DNA of 49,340 nt from Candidatus Kerfeldbacteria bacterium (GTDB taxonomy: Bacteria > Patescibacteriota > Patescibacteriia > SBBC01): the NCBI GenBank assembly GCA_016204585.1, contig JACQKH010000007.1, forward strand, positions 1 to 49,340. Direction: 5' to 3'. This document shows positions 9,149 through 48,782 of this stretch, one piece after another (position 1 is the stretch's first letter; each line of letters begins with the position of its first letter). The notes below the pieces were generated by a model that was not told the origin of the DNA, made no database searches, and was given only the letters and a program-made list of their open reading frames with translations. Both the position numbers and the translations under genes were made by a program.

Positions 9149-9198
9149 ATTGTTTAGGTCCTCCTTAAAAATATCGTCATTTTTATGTTGTTTAATGC

Positions 9199-9227
9199 AG
9201 TATAGCATGATCAGGCCATTTAGGCAA
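9199..9227 (-). promoter_or_regulatory. promoter of the NHL-repeat gene
   Basis: Minus strand: TTGCCT, 17 nt, TGcTATACT (extended -10). Confidence 0.55.
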
Positions 9228-27884: not shown

Positions 27885-28634
27885 ATGAGGACATTAATTC
27901 AAAGGCTCACCAAGATCGGAGTGAGCGAGTTCGTGTTGATTTTCCTCCTGGTCTTGGCGATGGGCGGAGTATTCGCGCTGATGTCGACTAACGTCAATTT
28001 CCAGGTAACGATCCTCCCGCCACCGCCGCCGACCATCACCACAATACTCGGCGACCCCCAGACGCGGGCGGTGCTGGTCATCGGCACCTCACTGCCTAAC
28101 GCCACGGTTCGCGTGTACGCATTTAGCGATCCGATCTTCGTCGAGACAAAGGCCGACGCCGAAGGCGCCTTCCTGGCCGCATTTACCGAGGATGTCCTGG
28201 CACCAGGCACTCACAATTTTTCAGCGGTGACGGTTCTGCCGCAGCAACAAACCACCGATCCGACTCCGAAAGTCGGCGTCACGGTGGCGGCTGATTACAA
28301 GGTCGAACCGGCGGCCGGAAGCGCCGCGCCGACGGTAAAAATCGGAAACGCCGACGCGGCCACGAGCTCACTCATCCGAACCATCATTCGGAACCAAGAA
28401 AGCGCTAAAGCCGTGGCTCCGGACGACGTTCCACCGCCGGATAGAAAGGCGAATCGCGCGCTCATAATTCAAATCGGCTTGTTCGCCGTGATTGCCCTAG
28501 AAACACTGCTCCTTCTGATGCAGCGCGCTCGCAGAAAAGCGCAGGCTGGTCAAAGTTTTTTTCACCTCGGTCGCGGCCTCTACCGTCTGCCGCATTCCCG
28601 CGACGCCACCGCCGGACATCTTCCGAACGGCTAA
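27885..28634 (+). CDS. bitopic membrane protein with an Ig-like (bacterial Ig) ectodomain, hypothetical
   Basis: N-terminal TM (FVLIFLLVLAMGGVFAL), PPPPP linker, beta-rich segment (GTSLPNATVRVYAF...ADAEGAF....L.PGTHNFSAV), second TM near the C-terminus. Confidence 0.55.
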   Translation: MRTLIQRLTKIGVSEFVLIFLLVLAMGGVFALMSTNVNFQVTILPPPPPTITTILGDPQTRAVLVIGTSLPNATVRVYAFSDPIFVETKADAEGAFLAAFTEDVLAPGTHNFSAVTVLPQQQTTDPTPKVGVTVAADYKVEPAAGSAAPTVKIGNADAATSSLIRTIIRNQESAKAVAPDDVPPPDRKANRALIIQIGLFAVIALETLLLLMQRARRKAQAGQSFFHLGRGLYRLPHSRDATAGHLPNG

Positions 28635-28647
28635 GTGCCGGATGATC

Positions 28648-29031
28648 TCACGACCGTAGCTTTGTCCGAACGAAGGTACCAAACATAACCGCCAAGGTCA
28701 CCGCTACGATAGTGACGATGATGACGCCGACCGTGAACTGGGCGGCCCGCTTGAATTTGGCATAGGAATCGAGGTAGGTGTCGCCGCGCCGGCGAGCATA
28801 GCGAGGAAATGTCGCTTGCGGGGCACCGGTCAGGTACAGCGGCACGCTCACCAGGTTGACTATCAGGCCGAGGATCACCTGAAGCGCCCATAGGAACGGA
28901 ATCATCGCCAAATGCGAGACCGTCGGTTGAGCGGCGGCGTGCCGGCGTTCAACCACCAGGCGGTCATAAACATCGAGTAAGATCCAGCGAATCTGGCGTA
29001 AGCGGGAATGGACTTGGAGTTCGTCAGTCAT
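28648..29031 (-). CDS. small 2-TM membrane module (127 aa), homologous to the N-terminus of the 1266-aa protein
   Basis: PLYLTGAPQATFPRYARRRGDTYLDSYAKFKRAAQFTVGVIIVTIVAV aligns with PLHLIWSPQQSFQKMARRHGNGEYLDSYSALIRQNRLAVISTTLLLLAAG of 44982-48782. Starts 3 nt after the stop of the 1136-aa gene. Confidence 0.65.
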   Translation of the reverse strand: MTDELQVHSRLRQIRWILLDVYDRLVVERRHAAAQPTVSHLAMIPFLWALQVILGLIVNLVSVPLYLTGAPQATFPRYARRRGDTYLDSYAKFKRAAQFTVGVIIVTIVAVTLAVMFGTFVRTKLRS

Positions 29032-29034
29032 GAT

Positions 29035-32000
29035 TTAACTCGCCACCACGCTGACGACCATGTTGATGTCGTAGTCGCTGGCCACCGGCTGCTCTTTCGG
29101 AACGGTTTGCGAGATGCTGACGTTGGTTAAATCCCAGTAGCAGTTGGTGCCCGCGCTCGCGCCGGCCGTGAGCAGCGTTACCGAATTTGTCACGCCTTCG
29201 TTGAAGGCAGTAGATGACCCGAGTGTTAAGCCGGTGGTGTTACAGCCGGACTGGGGCGTAATGGTGGCGCCGGATGGATTGACGGTCATCTGGCCGCCGA
29301 CCGTGTCCGTGTCCCCGCCGTCGCCGGCATTGGCGGTCGGGTCGTTGAAGTCGTAGTCAGTGCCGACGCTGTCCCAGACCGCCGTCGTAGCCGAGGCGGC
29401 GACGCTTAAGGTCCAGGTCGCCGTGGCCGTGGTGTTGGTGACCCGGACTTTTTGCGATGAAACACCAAAGGTGCCGGTCGAGGTTTGGACCGTAAAAGCC
29501 AACGACAAAGTACTCATCACCATCGAGGGGCTGGCGACCGAGGCGCCGCCGCTGTCAACGATGTCGACGGTTAAGCTTCCGCCGCCTCCGACCGCCGATT
29601 CGCTCCACTCGAACAAAAACCGGAATCGAACGAGCGCGTCACCGGCTGTAGCTTCCTGGTAGAGGGCGAGACCTTCGCCGGGTTTGAGAATCAGTTCGTC
29701 GCCGAAAACGATTTCACTGTCATAATCGCCGCTGGCTTGGTTGACAACGCCCGGCACGGTCACGCCGAGCAGGCGGGAGTCGGTCACGCCGGCTAAGGTG
29801 ACCGTCACGTTCGTATGCCTGATTTCGGCGGTGGTATCCGAAGTACCAGAATGTTTCTTCGGGATGTTGGCGGCGGTGACCTGCGTGCCGGCGGAAGCGG
29901 CGGTCGTACGTCTGATGGTGACCGGAATATAGCCGGGCGCGGTCAGCGTCCCGCTGCGGTTAGCTTTGATACCAACTCGTTTGACGACGTAATTCTTGGA
30001 TGAGCCGGATGGATTGAACAGTGAGGTATAGACGTAATTGGCGCTGGTCGAACCGTTGACCGGGCCGGTCGTCATCATGAATTCTCCTTCGGATGCGGGC
30101 GTGCTGCCGGATGCGACTTCCTGCCACTCGATCAGCAGCTTGACCCGGAAGTCAGCGTCTCCAGCCGAAGTATCGTGATAGAGGCCTATACCTTCGCCGG
30201 GCTGCAAGATGATTTGCTCATCGTTCTTGTACAGCTGTTCAACGTAGCCGGTCACGGCCGGAGCAATGGCCGAGCCGACCGCGCCCGGCGTTTGCAGGCC
30301 GAGCAGTTTCGAATCGGCCGTACCGGCATAGGTGGCGGTCACACCGGTTCGCCTGATTTCCATAGCGCTGTTGGCCGTGCCCGTGTGTTTTTTCGGTACG
30401 TTGGCCGCGCTGATGAGCGTGCCCGACGAAGCTGCGCTGATTCGGCGCAGCTGCATCGGGATATAGACTGCGGCCGCGATCGTATCCACCCGGATGCTGA
30501 CGCGTTTGACCACCGCAGTTTTTCCGGAGGCAGCCGGATTGAAGAGGGTGGCGTAGTTGTAGCTGGTGGCCGTGCTGCCGTTGATCGGTCCGATATCAGC
30601 CAGGTACTCGCCGGCCGAAGACGGGGCCGAAGCTTCCTCATCCCATTCAATTAACATTTTTACGTACTGGTCAACGTCGCCGGCCAGGACGTCAAGGTAG
30701 AACCCAATGCCTTCGCCCGGCTGCAAAACCAGTTTTTCATTGTCGCTAAAAGCAATCTCCCGCTGGCCGATGATCTGGCCAACCGCGCCCGGGCCGTTGA
30801 CTTGAAGCAGATCCGAATCGGTGGTGCCGGCATACGTGGCAGAAATTGCCGTGCCGCAGGTCGCCCCGCACCAACGCACTTCGGTCACGGCATTGGCCGT
30901 GCCCGTATGTTTTTTGGGCAGGTCGCTGGCGGTAATGAGCGTTCCGCCGGAAGCCGCAGTGACGCGCCGGAGATTGAAGGCCGAATACGTGGCGGCCCCG
31001 TCGGCATTGTTGCGGATAGCAATTCGCTTAACCACGGCGGTTTTGCCTGAAGCTGACGGATTGAAGAACGTGAAAAAATTCGTGTTGAGCGCGGCCGCGA
31101 CTTCCACCCGTGATGAAGCCCACAGGTATTCACCTTGCGACGCCGGCGTGCTGCCGGACGCGACTTCTTGCCATTCGACGATCATCCGGTTGAGCTGGTT
31201 GGCATCGCCGGTCGCATCGGACATCAGGGCGATTCCTTGACCGGCCTGCAAAATAAGCTGCTCATCGTTGGCTTCGAAATTCAGTGTCATCCAGCCGTGC
31301 GGCTGCCCAGCCACCGCACAGGGGGTGACGATGCCAAGACGGGCGTCCGATCCGCCAACGGCCGTGACGGTCACGCCGGTATGCCGGAACTCCATGACGC
31401 TGTTGGCGCTGCCAGTGTGTTTTTTGGGTACGTTGGAAGCGGTGATGGCCGTGCCGGCCGAGGCGGCGCTGGTTCTCCGCAGCACGATATTATTGGTGTA
31501 GACCGCCGCCGCGTCGCAGGTTTCACTGCCAAACCATATTCTTTTGACGATCGCAGTTTTACCCGAGGCGGCCGGATTGAAAAAGGAATTGTATACGTAA
31601 TTGGCGGCCGCGGCGTTCCCAACGCGAGGAAAGGCAAACAGGAATTCGGTTTGGGCCGACGGCGCGCTCGCGACTTCTTCCCATTCGACGTAGACACGAA
31701 TCCGCTGGTCAGCGTCGCCGGCTGCTTCTTGATAGACGGCGATGCCTTCACCTGGCTGCAGCACAATGTTTTCGTCGCTGCTGCCGAAAGTAATATCCCG
31801 AATGCTGTGGAATTGCCCGGCCGCGCCGGGCATGGCCTGGCCCATGATTCTTGAGTCAGTGACGCCGGCCAACGTGACGGTCGCGCCGGTGTGCCGGACT
31901 TCGGTGACGGCATTGGAAGAGTCATTGTGTTTTTTTGGGATATTGGCGGCGGTAATTTGGGTACCGGCTGACGCCGCCGTGGTACGCCGGACGCTCAAGT

Positions 32001-32385
32001 TCACGTAGGTGGCAGCGGCGACGGCATTAGCCCGTACGGCGATTCGCTTAATGACCGCCGTTCGTCCGGACCCCGACGGATTGAAGAACGAAGCGTACAC
32101 GTAGTTGGCGCTGGTCGAACCGTTAACCGGTCCGATGTCCACGGCATATTCCAACTCGTTCGAGTCTAAGGCCGCCTGGGCTTCTCGGATTCCGAATCGG
32201 AAGTTGTCGACGACCTTCGGGTTCTGCTTGGCCAGGAAGATTTTGTCGACGACTCCGCCTCCGCGCTTGGCTCGGCCGTCCTTGAACGTCAACGCCAGCG
32301 AGACCGGATCCAAGCCGGTGGCCAGAAGCGAAACAGTCAGCAGCCCGACCGCGGCTGTTCTAGCGAGCCTGCGCCACATACTCAT
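29035..32385 (-). CDS. large secreted protein: signal peptide + five ~172-aa repeats of unassigned type + C-terminal WxL-like domain
   Basis: The repeats share NY.Y..(F)FNP(S/A).SG(K/R)TA(V/I)(V/I)KR(I/V)......Y.....RR...AS.GT.(I/V).A.(N/D)(I/V/L)PKKH.......E(V/I/F)R..G.......D(S).L.......(L)QPGEGI......GD......(E)W.E. The last 179 aa are homologous to 35234-35935 and 37339-37980. ATG 32385 (or 32379) gives a signal peptide; the ORF-track start at 32445 is further upstream. Confidence 0.8.
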   Translation of the reverse strand: MSMWRRLARTAAVGLLTVSLLATGLDPVSLALTFKDGRAKRGGGVVDKIFLAKQNPKVVDNFRFGIREAQAALDSNELEYAVDIGPVNGSTSANYVYASFFNPSGSGRTAVIKRIAVRANAVAAATYVNLSVRRTTAASAGTQITAANIPKKHNDSSNAVTEVRHTGATVTLAGVTDSRIMGQAMPGAAGQFHSIRDITFGSSDENIVLQPGEGIAVYQEAAGDADQRIRVYVEWEEVASAPSAQTEFLFAFPRVGNAAAANYVYNSFFNPAASGKTAIVKRIWFGSETCDAAAVYTNNIVLRRTSAASAGTAITASNVPKKHTGSANSVMEFRHTGVTVTAVGGSDARLGIVTPCAVAGQPHGWMTLNFEANDEQLILQAGQGIALMSDATGDANQLNRMIVEWQEVASGSTPASQGEYLWASSRVEVAAALNTNFFTFFNPSASGKTAVVKRIAIRNNADGAATYSAFNLRRVTAASGGTLITASDLPKKHTGTANAVTEVRWCGATCGTAISATYAGTTDSDLLQVNGPGAVGQIIGQREIAFSDNEKLVLQPGEGIGFYLDVLAGDVDQYVKMLIEWDEEASAPSSAGEYLADIGPINGSTATSYNYATLFNPAASGKTAVVKRVSIRVDTIAAAVYIPMQLRRISAASSGTLISAANVPKKHTGTANSAMEIRRTGVTATYAGTADSKLLGLQTPGAVGSAIAPAVTGYVEQLYKNDEQIILQPGEGIGLYHDTSAGDADFRVKLLIEWQEVASGSTPASEGEFMMTTGPVNGSTSANYVYTSLFNPSGSSKNYVVKRVGIKANRSGTLTAPGYIPVTIRRTTAASAGTQVTAANIPKKHSGTSDTTAEIRHTNVTVTLAGVTDSRLLGVTVPGVVNQASGDYDSEIVFGDELILKPGEGLALYQEATAGDALVRFRFLFEWSESAVGGGGSLTVDIVDSGGASVASPSMVMSTLSLAFTVQTSTGTFGVSSQKVRVTNTTATATWTLSVAASATTAVWDSVGTDYDFNDPTANAGDGGDTDTVGGQMTVNPSGATITPQSGCNTTGLTLGSSTAFNEGVTNSVTLLTAGASAGTNCYWDLTNVSISQTVPKEQPVASDYDINMVVSVVAS
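29575..32157 (-). repeat. five tandem coding repeats (167, 173, 173, 176 and 172 codons)
   Basis: Boundaries counted from the translation: aa 97-263, 264-436, 437-609, 610-785, 786-957 (numbered from ORF-track start 32445). Confidence 0.8.
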
Positions 32386-33364
32386 AAATTTCTTTGGCGA
32401 TGTCGGTGAACAAACGGTTGACCGCTGCCTGGCCGTCAGCAGCATCGCCTTTTTGCTGGATCATGACGGTCAGCATGTACGGCCGGCCGGGCAGGTAGAC
32501 GATGCCGGAGTCGGCCCAAACTCGTTCGTCAATTCGGATACCGGTTTTATGGACAAAAACCACGTCGGACGGAAGACCGGCACTGAGATCTTCGCGCGAC
32601 GCGTCTTTCAAAATGTTCAGGAATACATTGGAATATTCGGGGGTCAGGTAGGTGGCATTGTAGAGCGAACGGAAAAAGATTGAATAACGCTTGGCCGTGA
32701 TCCGGTTGTCCGCTTCGGCGCCTTTGGGCGTTTGCTTGAGCGCGTCGATGATGTCGTCCATGCCGAGGTGCGTGTAAACATCCTCCAGTTCGCTGCCGTC
32801 GAGATTGCGCAGTAGCACGAAGTGGGCGGTGTTGTCGGAGTTGACGAGCGATTCGCGTAAAAACTCCTCAATCGTCATGGTCGTGCCGGTGGGTTGTTTG
32901 TAGAGTTCGCCGAACTCGCTGTCTTTGTCATCGTCGAGGATGACCAGCTGGTTGTCCAGTTTCCAGGCGTTGGTATCGACTTTTTTCATGGCCGCCATGG
33001 CCACCGGGATTTTAATCAAGCTGGCCGGCCAGATTTTTTCGTCCTTGTTGATTGAGACGTTGGCGCCGGTCGGCAGGTATTCGAAGTACAGCGAGACCAG
33101 GTAGTCGTCGCGCCGCTCGTACTTTTCGGTCAAGCGGTCCCGCAGCGACTGAAAGTTGACGAGCAGGTCCTTTTTTTCGATCAAGGCGGCGCTCGGATTC
33201 AACAGGGAATACTGGCTTTGAGAACCGACCGGGCCCGACTTTCGGTTCGGTACGTAGACAGTATAGGTGAGTATGAGCGCTGCGACGGCCAACCCCAGCC
33301 AGAGTTGGTACGCTCGCAGCGTTTTCTTGCTCGCCCCGTTAAGTTGGTTGGAATTGTCGTTCAT
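32360..33364 (-). CDS. class-A beta-lactamase-like serine hydrolase with N-terminal membrane anchor
   Basis: S-x-x-K (ASLIK), SDN (NSDNTA) and KTG (HKTGIR) motifs in canonical order. TM LWLGLAVAALILTYTVYV. ATG 33364 preferred, alternative GTG 33400. Confidence 0.7.
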   Translation of the reverse strand: MNDNSNQLNGASKKTLRAYQLWLGLAVAALILTYTVYVPNRKSGPVGSQSQYSLLNPSAALIEKKDLLVNFQSLRDRLTEKYERRDDYLVSLYFEYLPTGANVSINKDEKIWPASLIKIPVAMAAMKKVDTNAWKLDNQLVILDDDKDSEFGELYKQPTGTTMTIEEFLRESLVNSDNTAHFVLLRNLDGSELEDVYTHLGMDDIIDALKQTPKGAEADNRITAKRYSIFFRSLYNATYLTPEYSNVFLNILKDASREDLSAGLPSDVVFVHKTGIRIDERVWADSGIVYLPGRPYMLTVMIQQKGDAADGQAAVNRLFTDIAKEIYEYVAQAR

Positions 33365-33386
33365 GGTCAGACTGAGATCTGTGACG

Positions 33387-33683
33387 TTACTTCTTCCCAC
33401 GAGCCGTCAATTGACTGTTTAATGCTGACATCGCTGATGGTAAACGGTGCCGGGCGCCGGCGGCCACGGTGCTGCCCTCGCTGCCGAAAACACCGCTGGC
33501 CCAATCGCGGGTGCGAGGCGTGGTCACCGTACCTTCGCCGTAGACGATTTTACCGTCGCCTTGGGCCAGCGCCTGGGCGGGCGAGGGCAAGAGCAAGACG
33601 GGGAGGATCAATGACCACTGGCTGATCAGCGCCAATCCCGCGACCACAGATGCCGGGAACCGAATCGCGGAACGGCGCGCCAT
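33387..33683 (-). CDS. small secreted protein (98 aa), hypothetical
   Basis: ATG 33683 preceded by GGAG. Signal peptide MARRSAIRFPASVVAGLALISQWSLILPVLLLPSPAQA. The ORF-track start at 33809 overlaps the upstream gene. Confidence 0.45.
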   Translation of the reverse strand: MARRSAIRFPASVVAGLALISQWSLILPVLLLPSPAQALAQGDGKIVYGEGTVTTPRTRDWASGVFGSEGSTVAAGARHRLPSAMSALNSQLTARGKK

Positions 33684-33694
33684 AAACAGACTCC

Positions 33695-35098
33695 TTAAGC
33701 GGTAATTCGAGGCGGTTGGGGCCGGCTCCCTGGCGGTGACAGAAGCGACACGCCCGCAGTCAGCTGGTACGGCGCAGCTAAACGGTTGACCCTGGCCAGC
33801 AGTTTCCATGAAACACCCCAGCGTTTGGCCAGCTCTTGGATGGTATCGCCAGTTTCCACGCGGTACCGCACCCAGGTCGCGCTAATGAGCTGACGGCGTT
33901 TGCGCGCGAGCATAGTGAGACCGACCAACAGCAGGAGCAGCAACAGCGCCGCGGCCATGATGATGAGCGCCGATCTGGTCGGCCAGAGGAAAAAGCGGAC
34001 CGTCGGTCCGGTTAGGGTGGTTAAGCTGGCGTTCGCTCCCGGGCCACTGCCTGTATCCGGATTGTATGCCACGGTCAGCGCGGTGGTGTACCATCCGCCC
34101 CAGAACGTTTGCGGAAATTCGAAGTTCCAGGCGCTGGTCTGTCCGCGGAGGATGGTGTACTGGCCGCCGTGGCGCATGGCCGTCCGACCGAACAAATTTT
34201 TTGTGACCACGGCAACCTCGGCGTCGACCGACACGTTGCCTTCATTGCGCACGCTCGGACGAAGGACTTTGCCGCCGGGCGTTCTCGGCCGAACCTCGAA
34301 ACCGGCAATGGCGAGCTGGCGAACTATGTCGCCGGGGACGGTCACCGCCACGCGCAGACCGGTTCTGGTAGAAATGAGAACTCCCTCGCCACCGGCGACC
34401 GGCGGCTTCTTTTCCTGGATGAGCAGACAGCCGTCGTGCTCGCCGACTCCGGCAGTCCCGGGGACCGCCAGCCGGAACGGCACCAGGATTTTCGTCTGGG
34501 GAGCCAGCGTCAAGGCAACCGGCTGGAGCGGATCGTAACCGCTAACAATCTCTTGCTGATCAGTGAAACCGTCGCCGTCTGTATCGACCAGCTTTGGATT
34601 CGTCCCGCGCTGCGCTTCATCAGTCGCGGTCAGGCCATCGCCATCTTCGTCCGAGTCGTCTGTCGGGGTTGTCGTTGGTGGCGTGAAAAAACTGTCGGCG
34701 GTAACTTCGGGCGGCAGCGTCGCTCCGGCCTCAAGCGCTGGCTGAGGTTGACCCAAGGTAATCCACGCGCCAGCGTCTTTCTTGGTTGCCGAGGCTCCCT
34801 GATTTGAGGCGGACAATTGCTCGCAAGCAAACCCGCCGTCGCTCGACGGCGTGGCGTCAGCCGAATACACCCAGACTGTTTTTGTTTGGTCGGTCGTGTT
34901 GATGACGAACATTCCATCAGCCACGGTTTGCCCCGGCTCAACAGTGTAAACGAAGATATCGTTGGTTCGGGGATTATCAGGCCGCGGAAAGGCCGGCCGG
35001 CCGCCGAGGCCGCCGTAAGAAATTGCGACGGCCGGCAGGGCGGCGAGGAGCGTCGCCAGTGCAGCCACGACGGAAACCAGAAGCCGAGAAAAGCTCAT
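33695..35098 (-). CDS. CscA-like (DUF916 + DUF3324-like) surface protein with thrombospondin-type-3 Ca-binding repeats, one TM and a C-terminal LysM
   Basis: Signal peptide. YGGLGGRPA...VYSADATPSSDGGFA (DUF916-like). DSDEDGDGLTATDE...DTDGDGFTDQQE (TSP3-like). VPFRL.VP...GVGEH.GCLLI...VPGDIVRQL (DUF3324-like). TM ALIIMAAALLLLLLLVGLTML, then RKRR, then LysM (YRVETGDTIQELAKRWGVSWKLLARVNRL...L.AG). Confidence 0.7.
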   Translation of the reverse strand: MSFSRLLVSVVAALATLLAALPAVAISYGGLGGRPAFPRPDNPRTNDIFVYTVEPGQTVADGMFVINTTDQTKTVWVYSADATPSSDGGFACEQLSASNQGASATKKDAGAWITLGQPQPALEAGATLPPEVTADSFFTPPTTTPTDDSDEDGDGLTATDEAQRGTNPKLVDTDGDGFTDQQEIVSGYDPLQPVALTLAPQTKILVPFRLAVPGTAGVGEHDGCLLIQEKKPPVAGGEGVLISTRTGLRVAVTVPGDIVRQLAIAGFEVRPRTPGGKVLRPSVRNEGNVSVDAEVAVVTKNLFGRTAMRHGGQYTILRGQTSAWNFEFPQTFWGGWYTTALTVAYNPDTGSGPGANASLTTLTGPTVRFFLWPTRSALIIMAAALLLLLLLVGLTMLARKRRQLISATWVRYRVETGDTIQELAKRWGVSWKLLARVNRLAAPYQLTAGVSLLSPPGSRPQPPRITA

Positions 35099-35136
35099 AT
35101 CACTGGTGGTGTTTGTGTATTAAAACTGCTGGTTCA

Positions 35137-35165
35137 AGTATACCAGGAGTTAAACCGGTTACCAA
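35137..35165 (-). promoter_or_regulatory. promoter of 33695-35098
   Basis: Minus strand: TTGGTA, 17 nt, TATACT. Preceded by the hairpin ccccgc-cuau-gcgggg (35186-35201). Confidence 0.55.
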
Positions 35166-35233
35166 GCGACAAAAATCTCCGATCTCCCCGCATAGGCGGG
35201 GACGGGATCAGTGGTAACGAGGAATGTTGTAGC

Positions 35234-35935
35234 TTAGGAGGCGACGACTGACAACACCATGTTGATGTCGTAGTCCGAAGCGGCTGGCTGCTCTTCCGGA
35301 ATCTTCTGGCTGACCGACACGCCGGTTAATTTCCAGTCGCCGATGTCGTTCGAGGCGGCGGCGGCGGTCAGAACCGTGATGCTGTTGGTGGTGCCCTCAA
35401 GGAACGCGGTCGACGAGCCTTTGGTAATGTTGGTGGTGACGCAGGAGTTACACTGACCGGTTGCCAGCGTGCCGACTGACGGATCAACGGTCATCTGCCC
35501 GCCGAGCGTGTCGGTGTCGGCGCCGTCAGTACAACCCGAGCCGCCATTATCGTTGAAGTCGTAGTCCGTGCCGGCGCTGTCCCAAATGGCGGTGGTGGCG
35601 GAAGCGGCCAGCGAGGCGGTCCAGCCGTTGTCCGCCGCATCCGGGTTGGAGACGTAAATGTTCTGCGAGGCCGAGCCGAACGTGCCGGTGATGGTCTGAC
35701 AGGTAAAGCTGAAGGTGGCCGTTGACATCGTTACGGACGGACTGCCGACCGTTACATACGAGCCGTCAACAATATCAATCGCCAAGGAACCGGCATTGAT
35801 GGTCTGCTGGAAGTTCGAAGTGGAGCTGGCGTAGACGTAGGTGCCGGCGCCGCTCACCAATACCAAAATTCCCACGATCGCGATGACCGCGCGGAGGTTC
35901 AGTTTCCAAAGGAGCGCGTGGGTGAACTTACTCAT
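35234..35935 (-). CDS. secreted WxL-like domain protein (233 aa from ATG 35935)
   Basis: Signal peptide MSKFTHALLWKLNLRAVIAIVGILVLVSGAGTYVYA. QQTINAGSLAIDIVD...GWTASLAAS...DYDINMVLSVVAS. Homologous to 37339-37980 and to the C-terminus of 29035-32385. Confidence 0.7.
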   Translation of the reverse strand: MSKFTHALLWKLNLRAVIAIVGILVLVSGAGTYVYASSTSNFQQTINAGSLAIDIVDGSYVTVGSPSVTMSTATFSFTCQTITGTFGSASQNIYVSNPDAADNGWTASLAASATTAIWDSAGTDYDFNDNGGSGCTDGADTDTLGGQMTVDPSVGTLATGQCNSCVTTNITKGSSTAFLEGTTNSITVLTAAAASNDIGDWKLTGVSVSQKIPEEQPAASDYDINMVLSVVAS

Positions 35936-35993
35936 GGTTTTTGTTTGTAATGATACTCTTGGCAAAAGCCGGTTTTCAGCGTTTCTAAAGGCC

Positions 35994-36022
35994 AGTATAG
36001 CACAAAAAATAAGCCTTGTCAA
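35994..36022 (-). promoter_or_regulatory. promoter of 35234-35935
   Basis: Minus strand: TTGACA (36017-36022), 17 nt, TATACT (35994-35999). Confidence 0.65.
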
Positions 36023-36060
36023 CGATTTTTTGGTCGTTTTTTTGCTTGTTCTCGGCACGG

Positions 36061-37317
36061 TTAGGAACCGATCGGCACCTTGATAGTTTGACCGGCTTTG
36101 AGCCGATACGGCGGCTTAAGACCATTGGCCTTAGCCAGTACCCGCCAGTCAATACCGCGGCGTGAGGCAATGTCAACTAAGTCTTCGCCTGGGCGGACAA
36201 CGTAGGGACGCCACTGTTTCAAACGGCCGCGGTCGCGTCCTCGCCGCCACAGCCAGAGCGCAATGATGGCGACGGCGACGAGCATGACTACGGCGATTTG
36301 CAGCCAAGGCACAAACCAGCGGACGATGGTCGGTGTCATCAGCCTTTGGCCGGCGCCGTCGGTATCCGTGTAAGCAACCTGCGCTTGGTAGGAGAAACGG
36401 CCGAAGCGGGGCAGGGGCAGCGAAATATTGGTGATCAATTCTTGGCCACGTAGCGCTTGCGTCGCGCGTTCGACGGTTTGACTGCTTCGCCTAAAAATCG
36501 TATCGCTTACGGACAGCGTGGTCGTGTGATCTATACTGACATTGCCCGCGGCTAGCACGCCGACGGTGGCGACAAGCTCTTTTTGTCGAGCGTTCGGATG
36601 AATGGTAAAACGTGTTAGCTCAAGTTGACGGACGATGTCGCCGGGCACGGTTTCGTAGATGCGGACGCCGACGCGGGTGGTTAGCTGGACGCCGCCCGAC
36701 GGCGCGCTCGGTTCGTCGGCCGGCCGTTTCCGCTCCAGCACTAAACCGCCGGCATGCTCGCCAACGTCGGCGTTGTCGGGAATGCGGATGACGAACGGCA
36801 CGGCAACGGCTTGGTCAGGTTCGAGGCGGATGGCGGCTTCCCGAACGCCGCCGCACCAAGTCTTGAGTTCAGAAACGTCGGCGGTCGGCGCGGCCTGGGC
36901 CGCCTGCACAACGGCAAATTGGCAGAGCTCGGGAATCGAGCGCCGGTCTTCGGCGTAAGCGACCGGACGCGGCGTCGGGTACAACGTCACCCACGAACCA
37001 AGTTCGGTCATAGTTTCGGCCCGTTGCTTAAGAGCAAAGCCGCCGTCCGAACTGGGGGTTTGGTCGGCCGGGTAGACGATGAGTTCAACGGCCGCGCCGC
37101 TGCCGTTCTCGATCCGGAGCGCGTCTTCCTTGGTGGCGCCAGCCGGCAGCTGGTAGAGGAACCAGCTGGCGCTGTTCGGAACGTTCGGATCGGGGTTGGC
37201 CGGTCGGCCGCCGAGACCCTCGTACTCAATGGCCGAACCGGCGGCGGCGTACGCCAAGCCAAGCAGTGCGACGACGACGATGTTGAACGCTCGAAAACAA
37301 CGGTTAGCTTTCACCAA
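36061..37317 (-). CDS. CscA-like (DUF916 + DUF3324-like) surface protein with one TM and a C-terminal LysM
   Basis: Signal peptide. YEGLGGRPA...VYPADQTPSSDGGFA. VPFVIRIP...DVGEHAGGLVL...VPGDIVRQL. TM IAVVMLVAVAIIALWLW, then RRGRDRGR, then LysM (YVVRPGEDLVDIASRRGIDWRVLAKANGL...L.AGQ). TTG/GTG start. Confidence 0.7.
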   Translation of the reverse strand: MVKANRCFRAFNIVVVALLGLAYAAAGSAIEYEGLGGRPANPDPNVPNSASWFLYQLPAGATKEDALRIENGSGAAVELIVYPADQTPSSDGGFALKQRAETMTELGSWVTLYPTPRPVAYAEDRRSIPELCQFAVVQAAQAAPTADVSELKTWCGGVREAAIRLEPDQAVAVPFVIRIPDNADVGEHAGGLVLERKRPADEPSAPSGGVQLTTRVGVRIYETVPGDIVRQLELTRFTIHPNARQKELVATVGVLAAGNVSIDHTTTLSVSDTIFRRSSQTVERATQALRGQELITNISLPLPRFGRFSYQAQVAYTDTDGAGQRLMTPTIVRWFVPWLQIAVVMLVAVAIIALWLWRRGRDRGRLKQWRPYVVRPGEDLVDIASRRGIDWRVLAKANGLKPPYRLKAGQTIKVPIGS

Positions 37318-37338
37318 CCGTTAGCATACCACACCGGC

Positions 37339-37980
37339 TTAGGTGGCGGTGAGCGCCAGACTTAGGGTATAGGCCGCCGGCGTTTGGAAAGCGGGAATCG
37401 TTTGGGTCAGGCCGACGCCGGTGAAATCCCAGCGGCCGGGTTGGTCAGCGCTGGTGCTGGCCGAGAGAAGCGTAATCGAGTCAGTGGTGCCTTGAGCAAA
37501 GGAGGTTGATGAACCTTTGGACAGACCGGTGCTGGTGTAGGAATTGGTCGGCGTGATAGTTCCGACCGAAGCGTCAACAGTCAGCCGGCCTTGCGCGGAA
37601 GAACCGTTAAAATCGAAGGTGTTGGAACCGCCGTCTGACCACAGCGCGGTGGCGCCGGAAGCGGCCGCCACCGTCAAATTCCAAGCCACGGCCGGCGCGC
37701 TGCGACCGTTGCTGAGACGGATTTTCTGTGATGACGCGCCCAGCGTGCCGGTTGAGTTTTGGACCGTATCAAAGTTGAAGGTTACCGCGCTGAACGCGAC
37801 CGACGGGCTGCCGACGGTAACGTTCGAGGCGTCGACGATGTCAACCCCGAGCGTCCCGGCGTTGATTGTTTGCGAGAGCTGCGTCTGACTCGAAGCAAAA
37901 ATTATCTGGGGAGGGAAACTCCAGCTGAACAACAGACTTACAATTAGTATTGCGACTTTTGTATTTCTAAGGCGTTTCAC
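37339..37980 (-). CDS. secreted WxL-like domain protein (213 aa)
   Basis: Signal peptide. SQTINAGTLGVDIVD...AWNLTVAAAS...AAYTLSLALTAT. GTG start. Confidence 0.65.
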   Translation of the reverse strand: MKRLRNTKVAILIVSLLFSWSFPPQIIFASSQTQLSQTINAGTLGVDIVDASNVTVGSPSVAFSAVTFNFDTVQNSTGTLGASSQKIRLSNGRSAPAVAWNLTVAAASGATALWSDGGSNTFDFNGSSAQGRLTVDASVGTITPTNSYTSTGLSKGSSTSFAQGTTDSITLLSASTSADQPGRWDFTGVGLTQTIPAFQTPAAYTLSLALTAT

Positions 37981-38030
37981 GCTTTTATTTTTTGCTTTCT
38001 TACGAACTTGTTTTGTTAATTTCTATGTTC

Positions 38031-38059
38031 ATTATAGCCCATTTTTTGACCTTTGTCAA
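38031..38059 (-). promoter_or_regulatory. consensus promoter at the head of the surface-protein cluster
   Basis: Minus strand: TTGACA (38054-38059), 17 nt, TATAAT (38031-38036). Confidence 0.7.
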
Positions 38060-44981: not shown

Positions 44982-47900
44982 TTACCGCGTTGGTATGGTC
45001 AACACCCAGCCCGACTGAATCACATTCGGTTGCCGGACCAAACCGGGAAGCGCCTTGGCATTTTCTTTTACCAGCAACGGATAGAGATTGCCCGCGCCGA
45101 GGTAGCGCTCGGCAATCCGCCAGAGCGAATCCCCGGGCTGCACCGCGTATTTCAGGGTTTTGCCAACCTTTATCGTGGTTCGCTTGGCGTCAGTACCGAC
45201 AGTAAAGGTAATCTTCTGCCGCACGATGCTCGTCCGTCCGACCTCGTCGGTCGCCTGCACGTAGAGGATATGTTTCCCTGACTTGAACTCCTTCAGGGAG
45301 ATGGCCGCGGCAAAGCTCTTGGTTGATTTTGAATCGCCATCGACTTTAATGGTCTTGACCACCTTCCCGTCGACGTACAGGCGGAGCGTCTGTCCGCCCT
45401 TGGCCACGCCCGGCACGGTCAGCACCGGCTCCTGTCCGTCGCTGATGATGAGCGTGGTGACGGTCGGGGAAATCGCTCGGTTCTTCGTGGATTCGGGCGT
45501 GTTGGTGGTAAACGTGTCATCGTCAGTCACCGCCGTTGTCATACCGGTGCTGGTGATTTGGAAGTGGTAGGTCGTGCCGGAATCGAGGCCAGGTACTCGA
45601 AGCTGGTGGGCGGTAACGAGCTTGGTGTTAGATTTAACAATCCCGTAGGTGTCGGTCAGACCTAATCTAGCCTTCGAAGTCGCCGGTTCATTGGTCATCC
45701 AAATGAAAGTCGCCTCCGTTTCTCCGGCCACGACGCGAAGATTGCTGATGACGGTTTGGCCCGCTTCTGGTTGCGTCGTAAACGTGGCATCCGCATCCGA
45801 GTCAGTGGTGCTACCGGTTGATATTACTTCGTAGTGATAGGTAGTGTTCGGTTCGAGGCCGGTGATGGTCAGACTGTGCGAAGTCGCCAAGTTCAAGTCA
45901 GACGCCTCGCTTCCATAGTCAGTCGTTGGGCCGTAGCGCACTTTCGATGTGGCCGGTTCGTTGGTGGTCCAGGTGACGATAACCGAAGTTGAGCTCAAGA
46001 CCGCGACCTGGACGTTAGTGATGACCGTCATCGGCGTGGCCAGGGTAGTGAACGATAGATCAGTCGACACGGCCGCATTGCCAGCTTCATCCGTGCTCAA
46101 GGCCCGGGCGTGGAACTCGGTGTTCGTGGCCAAACCGCTCAAACTCACGCGGTGGCTCGTGGTCAGGCTGGGATCAAGCGTGGTCGTATTTCCATAACTT
46201 ACCGTTGTTCCCCATTCAACCTGCGTGCTGGCTGGTCCATTAGTCGTCCAGGTCAAGGTGGCGCTGTTGGTAGTGGTGGTGGCGACGAAGGACGAGATTA
46301 CCGGCGCCTGGGTATCTTTCAAAATGGTGAATACATCATCGACCTCGTTACTCAAGCCATCGAGGGCAAACGCCCGTACCGAAACGTAATTCGTTCCTTC
46401 TTGCAAGCTGGCAAAGTCCACGGTCCAGTTGATGGAATAACTATCGGTATCGGCCGTAAAAATGTTTGTCCAGTCCTTGAGCAGCGTCCCGGTCTTGCCG
46501 GCGCCGCTGTACACGGCGTACTGCCCATAATCGAGCTGCGGGCCGGCTGCGGCTTTGGCAAAATCGACGTCATAGGTCGTTCCGCTTGCCTTGCGAGGCG
46601 CAGTATCGCCAGTCTGGTTGTCGGAAATCGTCGGCAACGACGTGTTGACGGTGACGCCGTTTGAGGAGGTTGACGAACCGCTATTCCCGGCATTGTCCAC
46701 GGCTCGCGTCGAAACGTAGTAGGTCGTGCCGCTGGTTAACGATAACCCGGTCTTAGTGACACTGGTTGATGCGCCGTTGTCCGTGTACCCGAGAACTTGC
46801 GTTCCGCCCGATGTCGTGCCGATGGCGTACTGATATTTTGCAAGACCTGATGTCGTGTCCGTCGAGGCAGTCCAGTTCGCGGACAACTGGGTCAGGCTGG
46901 TCGAGTACGTGGCATCCGCGCCGGTGCCGTCGTTGACCGTAGCCGGGATGGTCGGATTCGTCGCGTCAAAGTAGTACGGACCGAAATCAGTGCCAGTACC
47001 GGTGGCCACGTCTTCCGTGTTGAACGACTGCAGGTGGAGATACCAGTTGTTACCGTCGACTGAAGCGGTCCGGCTCAAGCTCGTGCCGACGCTGGTACAA
47101 CTGCCGCCCGGACAGTTGGCGTTATTATTGCTCCAGGTGCTTTCCGAGCCGCTGAAGCTTTGGGTGACGCTTTGATTCCAGACGTAACGGTAATACTGCT
47201 GTCCACCAAGGAAGAAACCGTTCTGATCGTCAAACGTGAAGGTGCCGGTGTTGTACCAGGTCGAGGTCGCCCGGGTGCTGGTAACGTTCGGATTGGCCGC
47301 CAGGGTATACTTCGTTTGGCTGGCCGTGGTCGCGGTTTCATCGCTGTTGCCGTTCCGCGCTTTAACCGCGTATGGATTGGAAGTGTTTGGCGAAAGACCA
47401 GATTCGGTCCAGGCAGTCGTCTGAATCCAGCCGGAGTCGGTGGTGAGGTTGGTGTTTTGAAAGAACAGACCGGATGACCCGCTGGTCAGGTTCGACAACG
47501 TGCCGGTGGCCGTGACGGTAATGGAACTGGTGGTCACGTTGCTGAAACTGACGCCGGTCGGCGTTTCAATCGAGCTGTAGGCCGAGGCCGACGAGCTGTC
47601 GGTGTTGCCCTGAGCGTCGGTCACGTTGGCGTGGCGGGTGTATTGGGTGTTGGCCGATAGCCCGGTCTCAGTACAGCTGGTGCTATTCGCGGCCAGGTTG
47701 GTACAGCCGGTGACGTTGGCGTGGCTGGCGTTGTGGACGTCATACCGCGTCTCGGTGGCGGCGTTGTCAGTCCAGTTCCAGCTGACGCTGGTGGTGGTGT
47801 TGGCGGTGTGACCGAAGGCGGTGGGAGCCGGCGGCGGCGTGGTGTAGCTGATCACCAGCTGCGGCTTGTTCGACGACGCGTCCACCGAGCTGATGGCGCC

Positions 47901-48782
47901 GACGTTGGTAACTCTAGCCTGATGACGAATTCCGATGGCAATCAGATCGCTGCCGGTCAGACGGGTTTGAACGTTGGAGTCGGCGGTCGTTCCCAGGTCA
48001 ACGGTTTTCGCGCCGGTCGTGTTCCAGTTGGTGGCCGTGGTGTAATTGGTTCCCGAACCGAGCGTTTCGAAGAGACTGCTTCCCTCGGCGGTACAGGAAA
48101 CCGTATCGGGCGTATCGGTCGTGACCGGGAAGTATTCCACCGTGGCCGTGGTCGTGTCAGAAACGTTAACCGTCAATGAGACATCGGTGATTGTAGCGTT
48201 ATTTGGAATGGACGATAGGTCGAATTTCATAGCCAGTCGATATTCCCGGTCTGTTCCCACGCAACTCGTATCCAAGAAATCGACCTTCAAACTGGTAGCG
48301 GTGGCGCTTTCGCAGGCGTATGAGAACGTGTCGCACGTCGTAGCGTCGTACTCCCCGGTCCGGTCCCAGGTCGGATTCAGCGTAACGCTCGAAGACACGG
48401 CCGCGGCCGGTGTCGGCTTTCCTAGCTCGACCAATCCAAAACCCAGAATTGACAGTTGGATGCCGGCCGCCAGCAATAACAGCGTAGTCGAAATTACGGC
48501 CAACCGGTTTTGCCGAATGAGCGCGCTGTAGGAATCAAGATACTCGCCGTTGCCGTGACGGCGCGCCATTTTCTGAAAACTCTGTTGCGGACTCCAGATG
48601 AGGTGTAGAGGTATGGAAACTATGAAAATAGCGCTGTTGACTAGCGTCCGAGCAATGGCCAATGGAATGAACGTCAAGAACTGGACAAAGCGAGGATAAT
48701 GCCGAAAACCATCCTCCGCTGAATTGAAGGAGTCACCAGTACTTACGAGTTTTTGGCGAAGTGCTACAATCAAATGAACCAT
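44982..48782 (-). CDS. very large surface protein (1266 aa): N-terminal 2-TM module, DNRLRE-like domain, FN3 and PAP-N-type FN3 repeats, Ig-like domain, C-terminal LysM
   Basis: N-terminus homologous to 28648-29031. LKVDFLD....REYRLAMKFDLSSIP.NATITDVSLTV (DNRLRE-like). Three ~90-aa repeats at about 45504-46310 (T.VTWTTNEPATS.V.YG.T..YG......L.TSH...I.GL.P.T.YH). LysM YAVQPGDSLWRIAERYLG at the C-terminus. Confidence 0.8.
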   Translation of the reverse strand: MVHLIVALRQKLVSTGDSFNSAEDGFRHYPRFVQFLTFIPLAIARTLVNSAIFIVSIPLHLIWSPQQSFQKMARRHGNGEYLDSYSALIRQNRLAVISTTLLLLAAGIQLSILGFGLVELGKPTPAAAVSSSVTLNPTWDRTGEYDATTCDTFSYACESATATSLKVDFLDTSCVGTDREYRLAMKFDLSSIPNNATITDVSLTVNVSDTTTATVEYFPVTTDTPDTVSCTAEGSSLFETLGSGTNYTTATNWNTTGAKTVDLGTTADSNVQTRLTGSDLIAIGIRHQARVTNVGAISSVDASSNKPQLVISYTTPPPAPTAFGHTANTTTSVSWNWTDNAATETRYDVHNASHANVTGCTNLAANSTSCTETGLSANTQYTRHANVTDAQGNTDSSSASAYSSIETPTGVSFSNVTTSSITVTATGTLSNLTSGSSGLFFQNTNLTTDSGWIQTTAWTESGLSPNTSNPYAVKARNGNSDETATTASQTKYTLAANPNVTSTRATSTWYNTGTFTFDDQNGFFLGGQQYYRYVWNQSVTQSFSGSESTWSNNNANCPGGSCTSVGTSLSRTASVDGNNWYLHLQSFNTEDVATGTGTDFGPYYFDATNPTIPATVNDGTGADATYSTSLTQLSANWTASTDTTSGLAKYQYAIGTTSGGTQVLGYTDNGASTSVTKTGLSLTSGTTYYVSTRAVDNAGNSGSSTSSNGVTVNTSLPTISDNQTGDTAPRKASGTTYDVDFAKAAAGPQLDYGQYAVYSGAGKTGTLLKDWTNIFTADTDSYSINWTVDFASLQEGTNYVSVRAFALDGLSNEVDDVFTILKDTQAPVISSFVATTTTNSATLTWTTNGPASTQVEWGTTVSYGNTTTLDPSLTTSHRVSLSGLATNTEFHARALSTDEAGNAAVSTDLSFTTLATPMTVITNVQVAVLSSTSVIVTWTTNEPATSKVRYGPTTDYGSEASDLNLATSHSLTITGLEPNTTYHYEVISTGSTTDSDADATFTTQPEAGQTVISNLRVVAGETEATFIWMTNEPATSKARLGLTDTYGIVKSNTKLVTAHQLRVPGLDSGTTYHFQITSTGMTTAVTDDDTFTTNTPESTKNRAISPTVTTLIISDGQEPVLTVPGVAKGGQTLRLYVDGKVVKTIKVDGDSKSTKSFAAAISLKEFKSGKHILYVQATDEVGRTSIVRQKITFTVGTDAKRTTIKVGKTLKYAVQPGDSLWRIAERYLGAGNLYPLLVKENAKALPGLVRQPNVIQSGWVLTIPTR

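Follow-up and report, generated by a model that had tools for sequence, protein, structure and literature searches.

We analysed a 49,340-nucleotide stretch of DNA (the window) from a Candidatus Kerfeldbacteria bacterium, a member of the Patescibacteria/Parcubacteria group, in which a gene cluster on the minus strand, from 28648 to 37980, encodes predicted surface proteins. An earlier note on this DNA, made from the sequence alone, had proposed a distant csc/WxL-like system in a genome of 'CPR-like' (candidate phyla radiation) appearance, and the identity of the host agrees with the latter. Where the note had counted nine co-oriented genes we count eight: two small secreted proteins (W1 and W2) built on a domain that we call W, two membrane-anchored proteins (A1 and A2), a large protein ending in a third W domain (W3), a beta-lactamase-fold hydrolase, a two-transmembrane (two-TM) protein and a 97-amino-acid open reading frame (ORF) (Table 1). 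The evidence set out below makes it likely that the locus belongs to a divergent branch of the WxL/WxLIP system in Patescibacteria, in which a membrane-bound WxLIP would hold secreted W proteins on the cell surface.

Table 1. Features of the cluster and its surroundings (window positions; aa, amino acids; HMM, hidden Markov model; Ig, immunoglobulin; TSP3, thrombospondin type 3).
Feature	Position	Strand	Description
W1	37339..37980	-	213 aa; signal peptide and one divergent WxL-like W domain; proximal motif WNL
W2	35234..35935	-	233 aa; second small secreted W-domain protein, by HMM and alignment
W3	~29038-29580	-	C-terminal W domain of the large protein 29035-32385; family HMM E 2e-67
A1	36061..37317	-	418 aa; signal peptide, DUF916-like Ig domain with helical two-Cys insert, second Ig domain, TM helix, LysM
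A1 TM helix	36250..36306	-	Residues 338-356, by hydropathy; followed by basic WRRGRDRGRLK
A1 LysM	36073..36204	-	Residues 372-415; PF01476 2.3e-11
A2	33695..35098	-	467 aa; second WxLIP-like anchor; signal peptide, TSP3 repeats, TM helix, LysM
A2 TSP3 repeats	~34514-34660	-	Calcium-binding repeats; PF18884, 1.9e-8
A2 TM helix	33911-33967	-	By hydropathy scan
A2 LysM	33749-33865	-	PF01476 4.8e-8
Large W protein	29035..32385	-	1116 aa; signal peptide, five ~172-aa repeats (~29593-32175), GGGG linker, C-terminal W3
Beta-lactamase-fold serine hydrolase	32360..33400	-	Membrane-anchored; PF13354 1.6e-38; SLIK, SDN and KTG in the translation
Two-TM protein	28648..29031	-	127 aa; two hydrophobic segments; conserved downstream of the large W gene
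97-aa ORF	33387..33680	-	Signal-peptide-like N-terminus; no Pfam match
Convergent membrane protein	27885..28634	+	249 aa; N- and C-terminal TM segments, PPPPP stretch; Big_6 only at E 0.023
P1 promoter-like site	38031..38059	-	TTGACA-17-TATAAT, 12/12 consensus, upstream of W1; consensus match only
P2 promoter-like site	35994..36022	-	11/12 consensus and extended TG, upstream of W2
P3 promoter-like site	35137..35165	-	9/12 consensus and TG, upstream of A2

The W domain and the anchor proteins

W1, W2 and W3 are 40-45% identical, with 59 invariant alignment columns, and so make up one domain of ~180 amino acids, as had been claimed for these three products; a W-family HMM run over the window recovers exactly the same three copies (E ~1e-67 to 1e-92). 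W1 is a 'hypothetical protein' in its NCBI record. The signal peptide of W2 ends in ...VSGAGTYVYASSTS, an ending that W1 does not have and that resembles the SipW-type motif (TasA/camelysin class).

The route from W to WxL is genome context: homologues of the anchors in Levyibacteria adjoin proteins that pass the PF13731 cut-off. Starting from one of these, a search yielded two alignments, a 300-amino-acid family and a set of 170-207 amino acids (n=13), in which 10 of the 13 proteins are PF13731-positive (best 2.6e-12). Compared by hhalign, the W family matches this 170-207-amino-acid set over nearly its full length (Prob 97.9, E 5.2e-13, 157 columns), the 300-amino-acid family at Prob 96.1 and E 2.8e-9 (173 columns), and a profile built from four short WxL proteins of Firmicutes (L. 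plantarum, B. thuringiensis, L. garvieae and B. anthracis pXO1; PF13731 3e-10 to 1e-26) at Prob 91.4 and E 9.3e-7 (165 columns). Controls with the 170-207-amino-acid set reversed or column-shuffled gave Prob <=0.5 and E 0.1-0.8, ruling out a compositional artefact behind these matches. Reciprocal HMM-to-sequence matches between W and WxL are full-length and colinear, with E down to 3e-7 among 4447 ORFs. Only profiles made from short WxL proteins give significant links; the match of the W profile to individual Levyibacteria WxL proteins is marginal (E 0.0017 and 5e-4).

The proximal motif of the domain, ..RG..GWxLxV.., reads WNL in W1, WTL in W3 and WTA in W2. Its Trp is present in 34 of 36 W-family members, 32 of which have L, V or M at +2. 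The segment IRLSNGRS..AVAWNLTVAA of W1 aligns with VKVSDLRGTNAGWSLTVAQ of an L. plantarum WxL protein, setting WNLTVA against WSLTVA, the proximal WxL motif.

The two anchor proteins are paralogues (31% identity over ~440 columns, E 2e-44), and a hydropathy scan and PF01476 together agree with the signal peptide, single TM helix and following LysM first noticed in them. Both fall short of the PF06030 (DUF916) cut-off of 27.3 bits, A1 at 20.2 and A2 at 14.2 bits; the stretch that aligns with positions 6-120 of the model is residues 40-195. Across the aligned anchor family PF06030 is found at E<=1 in 33 of 34 members (best 4.9e-16), and distant A1 homologues carry it above threshold, one of them named 'WxL protein peptidoglycan domain-containing protein' by NCBI. 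As a single sequence A1 found only noise among PDB sequences; the anchor-family profile found chains 9i25_C and 9i1y_A of the E. faecium WxLIP (EfmWxLIP1) at E 1.7e-7, and hhalign against eight plasmid-derived Firmicute WxLIPs gave Prob 99.0 and E 2.9e-18. The WxLIP region NQIDKxxxYFDLK aligns in the anchor, where it reads NPDPNVPNSASWFLYQL.

The AlphaFold2 (AF2) model of A1 (pLDDT 92.1) comprises two Ig-like domains, the second at residues 232-335, a 29-residue helix (338-366) and the LysM. In a Foldseek search with this model the first rank is 'WxLIP from Enterococcus faecium' (9i1y_A, E 2e-12). The WxLIP matches, at E 2e-12 to 4e-12, cover both Ig domains with a TM-score of 0.60-0.67 on the target; that to 9i25_C has E 3e-12, TM-score 0.67 and a root-mean-square deviation (rmsd) of 4.7 over 312 columns. 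A VPF..VGEH.G.L motif that had been placed in the second beta-rich domain turns out, from the PF06030 span and the AF2 model, to close the first, DUF916-like one. This first domain contains in A1 a helical insert (residues ~106-160, ~36840-37000) with two cysteines, C132 and C155, that are invariant in close relatives. In A2 the same insertion point is occupied by the TSP3 repeats, an addition already suspected from the sequence and recovered here with PF18884; canonical Firmicute WxLIPs have no insert there.

In both anchors the LysM lies beyond the sole TM helix, the C-side flank of which is strongly basic, so that by the positive-inside rule the LysM is predicted to be cytoplasmic. Longer relatives of the anchors run from signal peptide and Ig domains through TM1, LysM and TM2 to a LytR_C domain, a layout that puts the LysM in a loop between TM helices and hence also on the cytoplasmic side. 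Going by sequence, then, we predict a cytoplasmic LysM in A1 and A2, which is an unusual site for a peptidoglycan-binding module. One precedent is SpoVID, whose cytosolic LysM binds lipid II (PMC11513918). The likeness to SpoVID/SafA of Bacillus sporulation lies in the cytoplasmic side on which the LysM is placed; the proteins and the process are unrelated, and the topology of A1 and A2 is a prediction. If real, a LysM beyond the TM helix suggests that the protein signals, or forms a tether, across the membrane.

Evidence for and against the WxL/WxLIP assignment

The profile and fold matches support A1 and A2 as homologues of WxLIP (DUF916/DUF3324), and the profile comparisons support W as a divergent WxL domain, apparently related to WxL by remote homology over the whole domain. 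Several results weigh against these assignments. W1, W2 and W3 have no Pfam or NCBIfam match, and no model of these databases, PF13731 included, recognises any of the 36 W-family members even at E<=10. Of the distal motif Y...LTWxL the Tyr is kept in 36 of 36 members, whereas the Trp position is L, I or V in every one; another conserved W-D-L lies ~20 residues upstream of the lost Trp position. With a profile of four longer Enterococcus WxL proteins the W family gave Prob 2.7 and E 0.017 over 58 columns; the Patescibacterial 170-207-amino-acid set matches that same profile at Prob 95.1 and E 3.2e-8 over 113 columns. Among PDB chains, no WxL domain is detectable by either the Patescibacterial or the Enterococcus WxL profile, so W and WxL can be compared by sequence profiles and not by structure. 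The best PDB fold matches of W1 are weak (E 0.009-0.1, TM-score 0.3-0.48). For the anchors, hhalign of the second Ig domain alone against DUF3324 gave Prob 2, and we therefore reject independent sequence evidence for DUF3324. PF11797 (DUF3324) is also not among the 25 families listed of the 59 matched at E<=1 by the 34 anchor-family members.

Both parts of the check by which the earlier note could have been overturned turned out in its favour, and its proposals are supported. That the W domains are WxL-like is upheld by full-length profile-profile matches to PF13731-positive proteins, but not by any match in Pfam or NCBIfam. The similarity of the two larger proteins to DUF916 stands by profile and by fold, with their own scores below the PF06030 cut-off; for DUF3324 it is the fold of the predicted structure that supports the assignment, and sequence does not. 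The wider proposal of a distant csc/WxL-like system agrees with the WxLIP fold, with the profile comparisons of both anchors and W, and with the synteny described below.

The structural comparisons bear on a different explanation, in which the W proteins would build a donor-strand surface fibre, with small W proteins as the shaft, the large W protein as tip adhesin and the A proteins as tethered chaperone or base, on the model of chaperone-usher pili, Pyrodictium cannulae or Bacillus Ena fibres. The AF2 model of W1 is all-beta (pLDDT 92), and its best matches in the PDB are all donor-strand fibre subunits: CanA (9h8b/7uii), CfaB (4y2l), CsuA/B (6fq0/7zl4), FimG and Caf1. A PDB sequence search with the W profile, at noise level throughout, touches Ena1B (7a02) at E 0.06, and the fold matches of A1 that follow WxLIP are the pilus chaperones CfaA, CsuC, FimC and EcpB (E 3e-8 to 4e-6). 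In shape A1 and W1 thus resemble a chaperone/pilin pair. This fits the published AF2 model of a WxLIP-WxL pair, which also uses strand insertion (PMC10599100), and it keeps the fibre hypothesis alive at the same time. We nevertheless think a fibre unlikely. The W1 matches are weak (E 0.009-0.4, TM-score 0.26-0.48, rmsd 5-14 A), the W1 monomer is modelled with confidence and has no obvious missing strand, the window contains no usher- or sortase-like assembly gene, and the homologous Firmicute system is described as a wall-bound complex.

Conservation, modules and accessory genes

A survey of gene neighbourhoods in related genomes had been suggested in the earlier note. Using one genome per GTDB species and a narrow anchor alignment, we found 46 loci, hosted by Kerfeldbacteria, Moraniibacteriota, Komeilibacteria, Parcubacteria, Levybacteria, Gottesmanbacteria, other Microgenomates and Saccharimonadales, with a few bins labelled otherwise. 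A W or WxL gene lies within 400 bp of the anchor in 35 of the 46, 27 encode a large protein with W or WxL at its C-terminus, and 25 have both a small and a large one, so that co-conservation is strong across Patescibacteria and chance co-location of the cluster genes is rejected. Partner type tracks anchor type: W accompanies LysM-tailed anchors in 18 of 22 loci and Pfam-type WxL accompanies LysM-less anchors in 14 of 17, with three mixed loci. The gene order is W-W-A, a 335-amino-acid protein and a C-terminal W on a related 609-kb contig, and W-A followed by a 1315-amino-acid protein with a C-terminal W in a complete Dojkabacteria genome.

Eight of the loci (L013, L019, L029, L031, L034, L036, L042 and L049) come from metagenome-assembled genomes (MAGs) labelled Gammaproteobacteria, Pseudomonadales, Bdellovibrionales, Pirellulales or Clostridia. 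Mislabelled or contaminated bins may lie behind this, or real transfer; we treat the labels as unverified bin assignments and base no conclusion on them. Outside this group, B. anthracis pXO1 carries small WxL and WxLIP genes at 78207-79968 (L061), with CpaF/VirB11-type ATPase genes a few genes (~2.4 kb) upstream; the short WxL protein encoded there belongs to the Firmicute proteins that come nearest to the W family of Patescibacteria.

Among 1.84 billion representatives the W family comprises 768 representative clusters at E<=1e-3 and 501 at E<=1e-30. In the best 150 of the 768 the W domain stands at the extreme C-terminus, in proteins of up to 2069 amino acids, and the N-terminal passengers of large W proteins vary (DUF7483, DUF2341, beta-helix, Ig). 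In the window the passenger consists of five repeats that are 47-54% identical among themselves and have no Pfam match and no PDB sequence match; the protein has orthologues in L013 and L027. Passengers of this kind also bear on an extracellular polysaccharide-utilisation complex as the function of the locus. Such a role was reportedly proposed by Siezen et al. for the L. plantarum csc/WxL clusters originally, and some large W proteins do have a beta-helix or an Ig_Rha78A_N domain. The cluster in the window has, however, no glycoside hydrolase, sugar transporter or regulator, and the five-repeat passenger matches no carbohydrate-active family; we give this explanation very little credence.

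The cluster falls into two cognate modules that go back to an ancient duplication, W1-A1 and W2-A2-large W, each with a sigma-70-like site before it. The W1-A1 and W2-A2 pairs are orthologous, respectively, to the first and the second pair of L013, L018 and L026, which makes the duplication an old one; W2 has orthologues of 71-91% identity in the second module of each of these loci. A duplicated system of two CscA-like and three WxL-like genes had been described here from the sequence, and we find the corresponding two WxLIP-like and three W-domain genes within 9 kb. The three near-consensus promoters described at the same time were recovered at the same positions by a consensus scan, which found 5 sites against 2.8 +/- 1.8 in shuffles. 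P2 falls inside the GTG-extended form of the W2 ORF, and the ATG start at 35935 is therefore favoured.

The hydrolase upstream of the large W gene had been described as class-A beta-lactamase-like. Its PF13354 fold and its SLIK, SDN and KTG motifs agree with that description, but against the NCBIfam class-A model NF033103 it reaches 96.8 bits, below the cut-off of 200. Given this score and its setting among surface-protein genes, we reject its reading as a true beta-lactamase resistance gene. In L013, L027, L021 and L012 an orthologue is found directly upstream of the large W gene, and in L033 one sits beside the anchor.

Together with the LysM tails, this enzyme raises the question of a cell-wall maintenance locus: peptidoglycan would be remodelled or monitored by the LysM proteins and the hydrolase, with the W proteins as structural parts of the wall and not displayed adhesins. 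Consistent with it are the two LysM domains and the penicillin-binding protein/beta-lactamase-fold enzyme in one cluster, the LytR_C domains added in relatives, the recurrence of the bla-like gene in 5 related loci, and the lipid II-binding LysM of SpoVID. Yet the bla-like gene is absent from 41 of the 46 loci, the conserved core is anchor, small W and large W, and the highly variable passengers of the large W proteins are better suited to display. Wall maintenance as the main role is, in our judgement, quite improbable.

The two-TM protein, earlier listed as a 2-TM module gene, does have two hydrophobic segments. Its homologues stand alone in L018 and L026 and form the N-terminal module of longer proteins in L001, L011, L013 and L028; in the 436-amino-acid protein L001:14795-16105 the module is fused to PF04392 (ABC_sub_bind). 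The 97-amino-acid ORF had been read as a small secreted protein. Its signal-peptide-like N-terminus fits that reading, but the ORF is 60% identical over 78 amino acids to residues 18-93 of a large W protein of Kerfeldbacteria (L018:12933-14981), and probably represents what is left of the N-terminal part of a large W gene that has been replaced. The 249-amino-acid protein encoded convergently beyond the two-TM gene has homologues 59-76% identical at the same position in 7 related loci and may belong to the system.

GC content is ~0.60 inside the cluster and ~0.54-0.55 on both flanks. Around it lie housekeeping genes (BipA, a Mur ligase, RNase Y, IF-2, ClpP) and genes for other large surface proteins. 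One of these, at 44982-48782 on the minus strand, encodes 1266 amino acids with fn3/purple-acid-phosphatase-N-like domains and, at the C-terminus, a LysM with no TM helix before it. Two others on the same strand encode predicted surface proteins that have no W domain, one of 1457 amino acids with CarboxypepD_reg domains (10715-15088) and one of 683 amino acids with NHL repeats (7157-9208).

Proposed function and comparison with known systems

From the observed homology, architecture and synteny we infer how a divergent WxL/WxLIP system would work in this organism. A1 and A2 would be exported and kept in the membrane by the C-terminal TM helix, exposing two Ig-like domains that correspond to the PGBD (DUF916) and HBD (DUF3324) of WxLIP. 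W1 and W2 would be secreted as a WxL-type beta-sandwich only, and the 1116-amino-acid protein would present its W domain behind the five novel ~172-amino-acid repeats. The anchor would bind the W domain, probably via a strand or hairpin of its first Ig domain, by analogy with Firmicutes, and the W proteins, small and large alike, would thereby be kept at the wall. In the large protein, the variable passenger at the N-terminus would then face outward and may serve adhesion or substrate binding, with the class-A beta-lactamase-fold hydrolase and the two-TM protein as putative recurrent accessories.

A large part of the diversity of bacteria belongs to the Patescibacteria (CPR), many of which are believed to spend their lives attached to other cells, and the surface proteins of the group are mostly annotated 'hypothetical'. 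Against this background the W/WxLIP-LysM system could be a lineage-wide Patescibacterial attachment apparatus, in which swappable passengers contact the host cell, these bacteria being presumed episymbionts, and a cytoplasmic LysM couples display to the peptidoglycan precursor pool (lipid II, scavenged muropeptides). We regard this as an outside chance; if true, it would be a transmembrane link that has no counterpart in the Firmicute system. The more likely reading, a divergent WxL/WxLIP branch, would give a testable identity to at least 768 protein clusters that domain databases do not recognise, and to their anchors, and would make the large C-terminal-W proteins a catalogue of candidate adhesins. 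It would also carry WxL/WxLIP, seen as belonging essentially to Bacilli, far into another region of the bacterial tree.

Known WxL sequences are concentrated in Firmicutes, which hold 91% of them (PMC9772566). A WxL cluster has been defined from Bacilli as a minimum of one WxLIP together with two WxL proteins, lying no more than four genes apart, the typical pair being one small protein and one large protein with a C-terminal WxL domain (PMC10599100, Hassan, Chaudhuri & Williamson 2023). The window, with its two WxLIP-like and three W genes in 9 kb, is such a cluster if W is accepted as a WxL homologue. It shares gene order and a three-part logic with the Firmicute WxL/WxLIP (csc) clusters of Lactobacillales and Bacillales, such as loci A-C of E. 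faecium and the csc clusters of L. plantarum. The three parts are a small secreted protein that consists of WxL only, a membrane-anchored WxLIP with two Ig domains and a C-terminal TM helix, and a large protein with WxL at its C-terminus. The order small W, WxLIP, large W is canonical, and not 'rearranged' as it had been called. Homology of the core parts is supported, and the proximal WxL motif is kept in W. The differences are that W escapes PF13731 and has lost the distal Trp; that the anchors score below the PF06030 cut-off and have no PF11797 sequence match among the families listed for the anchor family or by hhalign of the domain alone; that the anchors of the window add a Cys-containing helical or TSP3 insert in the first domain and a LysM beyond the TM helix; that the cluster has no LPxTG protein or sortase; and that the host is a Patescibacterium and not a Firmicute.

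Chaperone-usher pairs (CfaA-CfaB, CsuC-CsuA/B, FimC-FimG) are alike in combining a two-Ig protein with an Ig-like subunit for which strand insertion is proposed. There is no sequence relationship to them and no usher, the 'chaperone' here is membrane-anchored and TM-scores are low, so the likeness is one of analogy only.

Nearer at hand are WxL/WxLIP clusters that Pfam recognises within Patescibacteria, in Levyibacteria, other Microgenomates and some MAGs labelled Saccharibacteria/Saccharimonadales (L005, L006, L039-L052). Their anchors are homologous to those of the window (E 1e-25 to 1e-99), and gene order and the small and large partners are alike. They differ in that the partners score above the PF13731 cut-off and most of the anchors lack a LysM, either stopping at the TM helix or bearing LytR_C. 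The part of the literature that was covered yielded no report linking WxL or DUF916 to Patescibacteria/CPR, in agreement with the earlier statement that no system of such composition has been described, although NCBI already auto-annotates the Pfam-recognisable clusters in other Patescibacteria. What is new here, within a homologous WxL/WxLIP system, is an unrecognised family of partner domains, the inserts in the anchors and a LysM tail with an unexpected topology.

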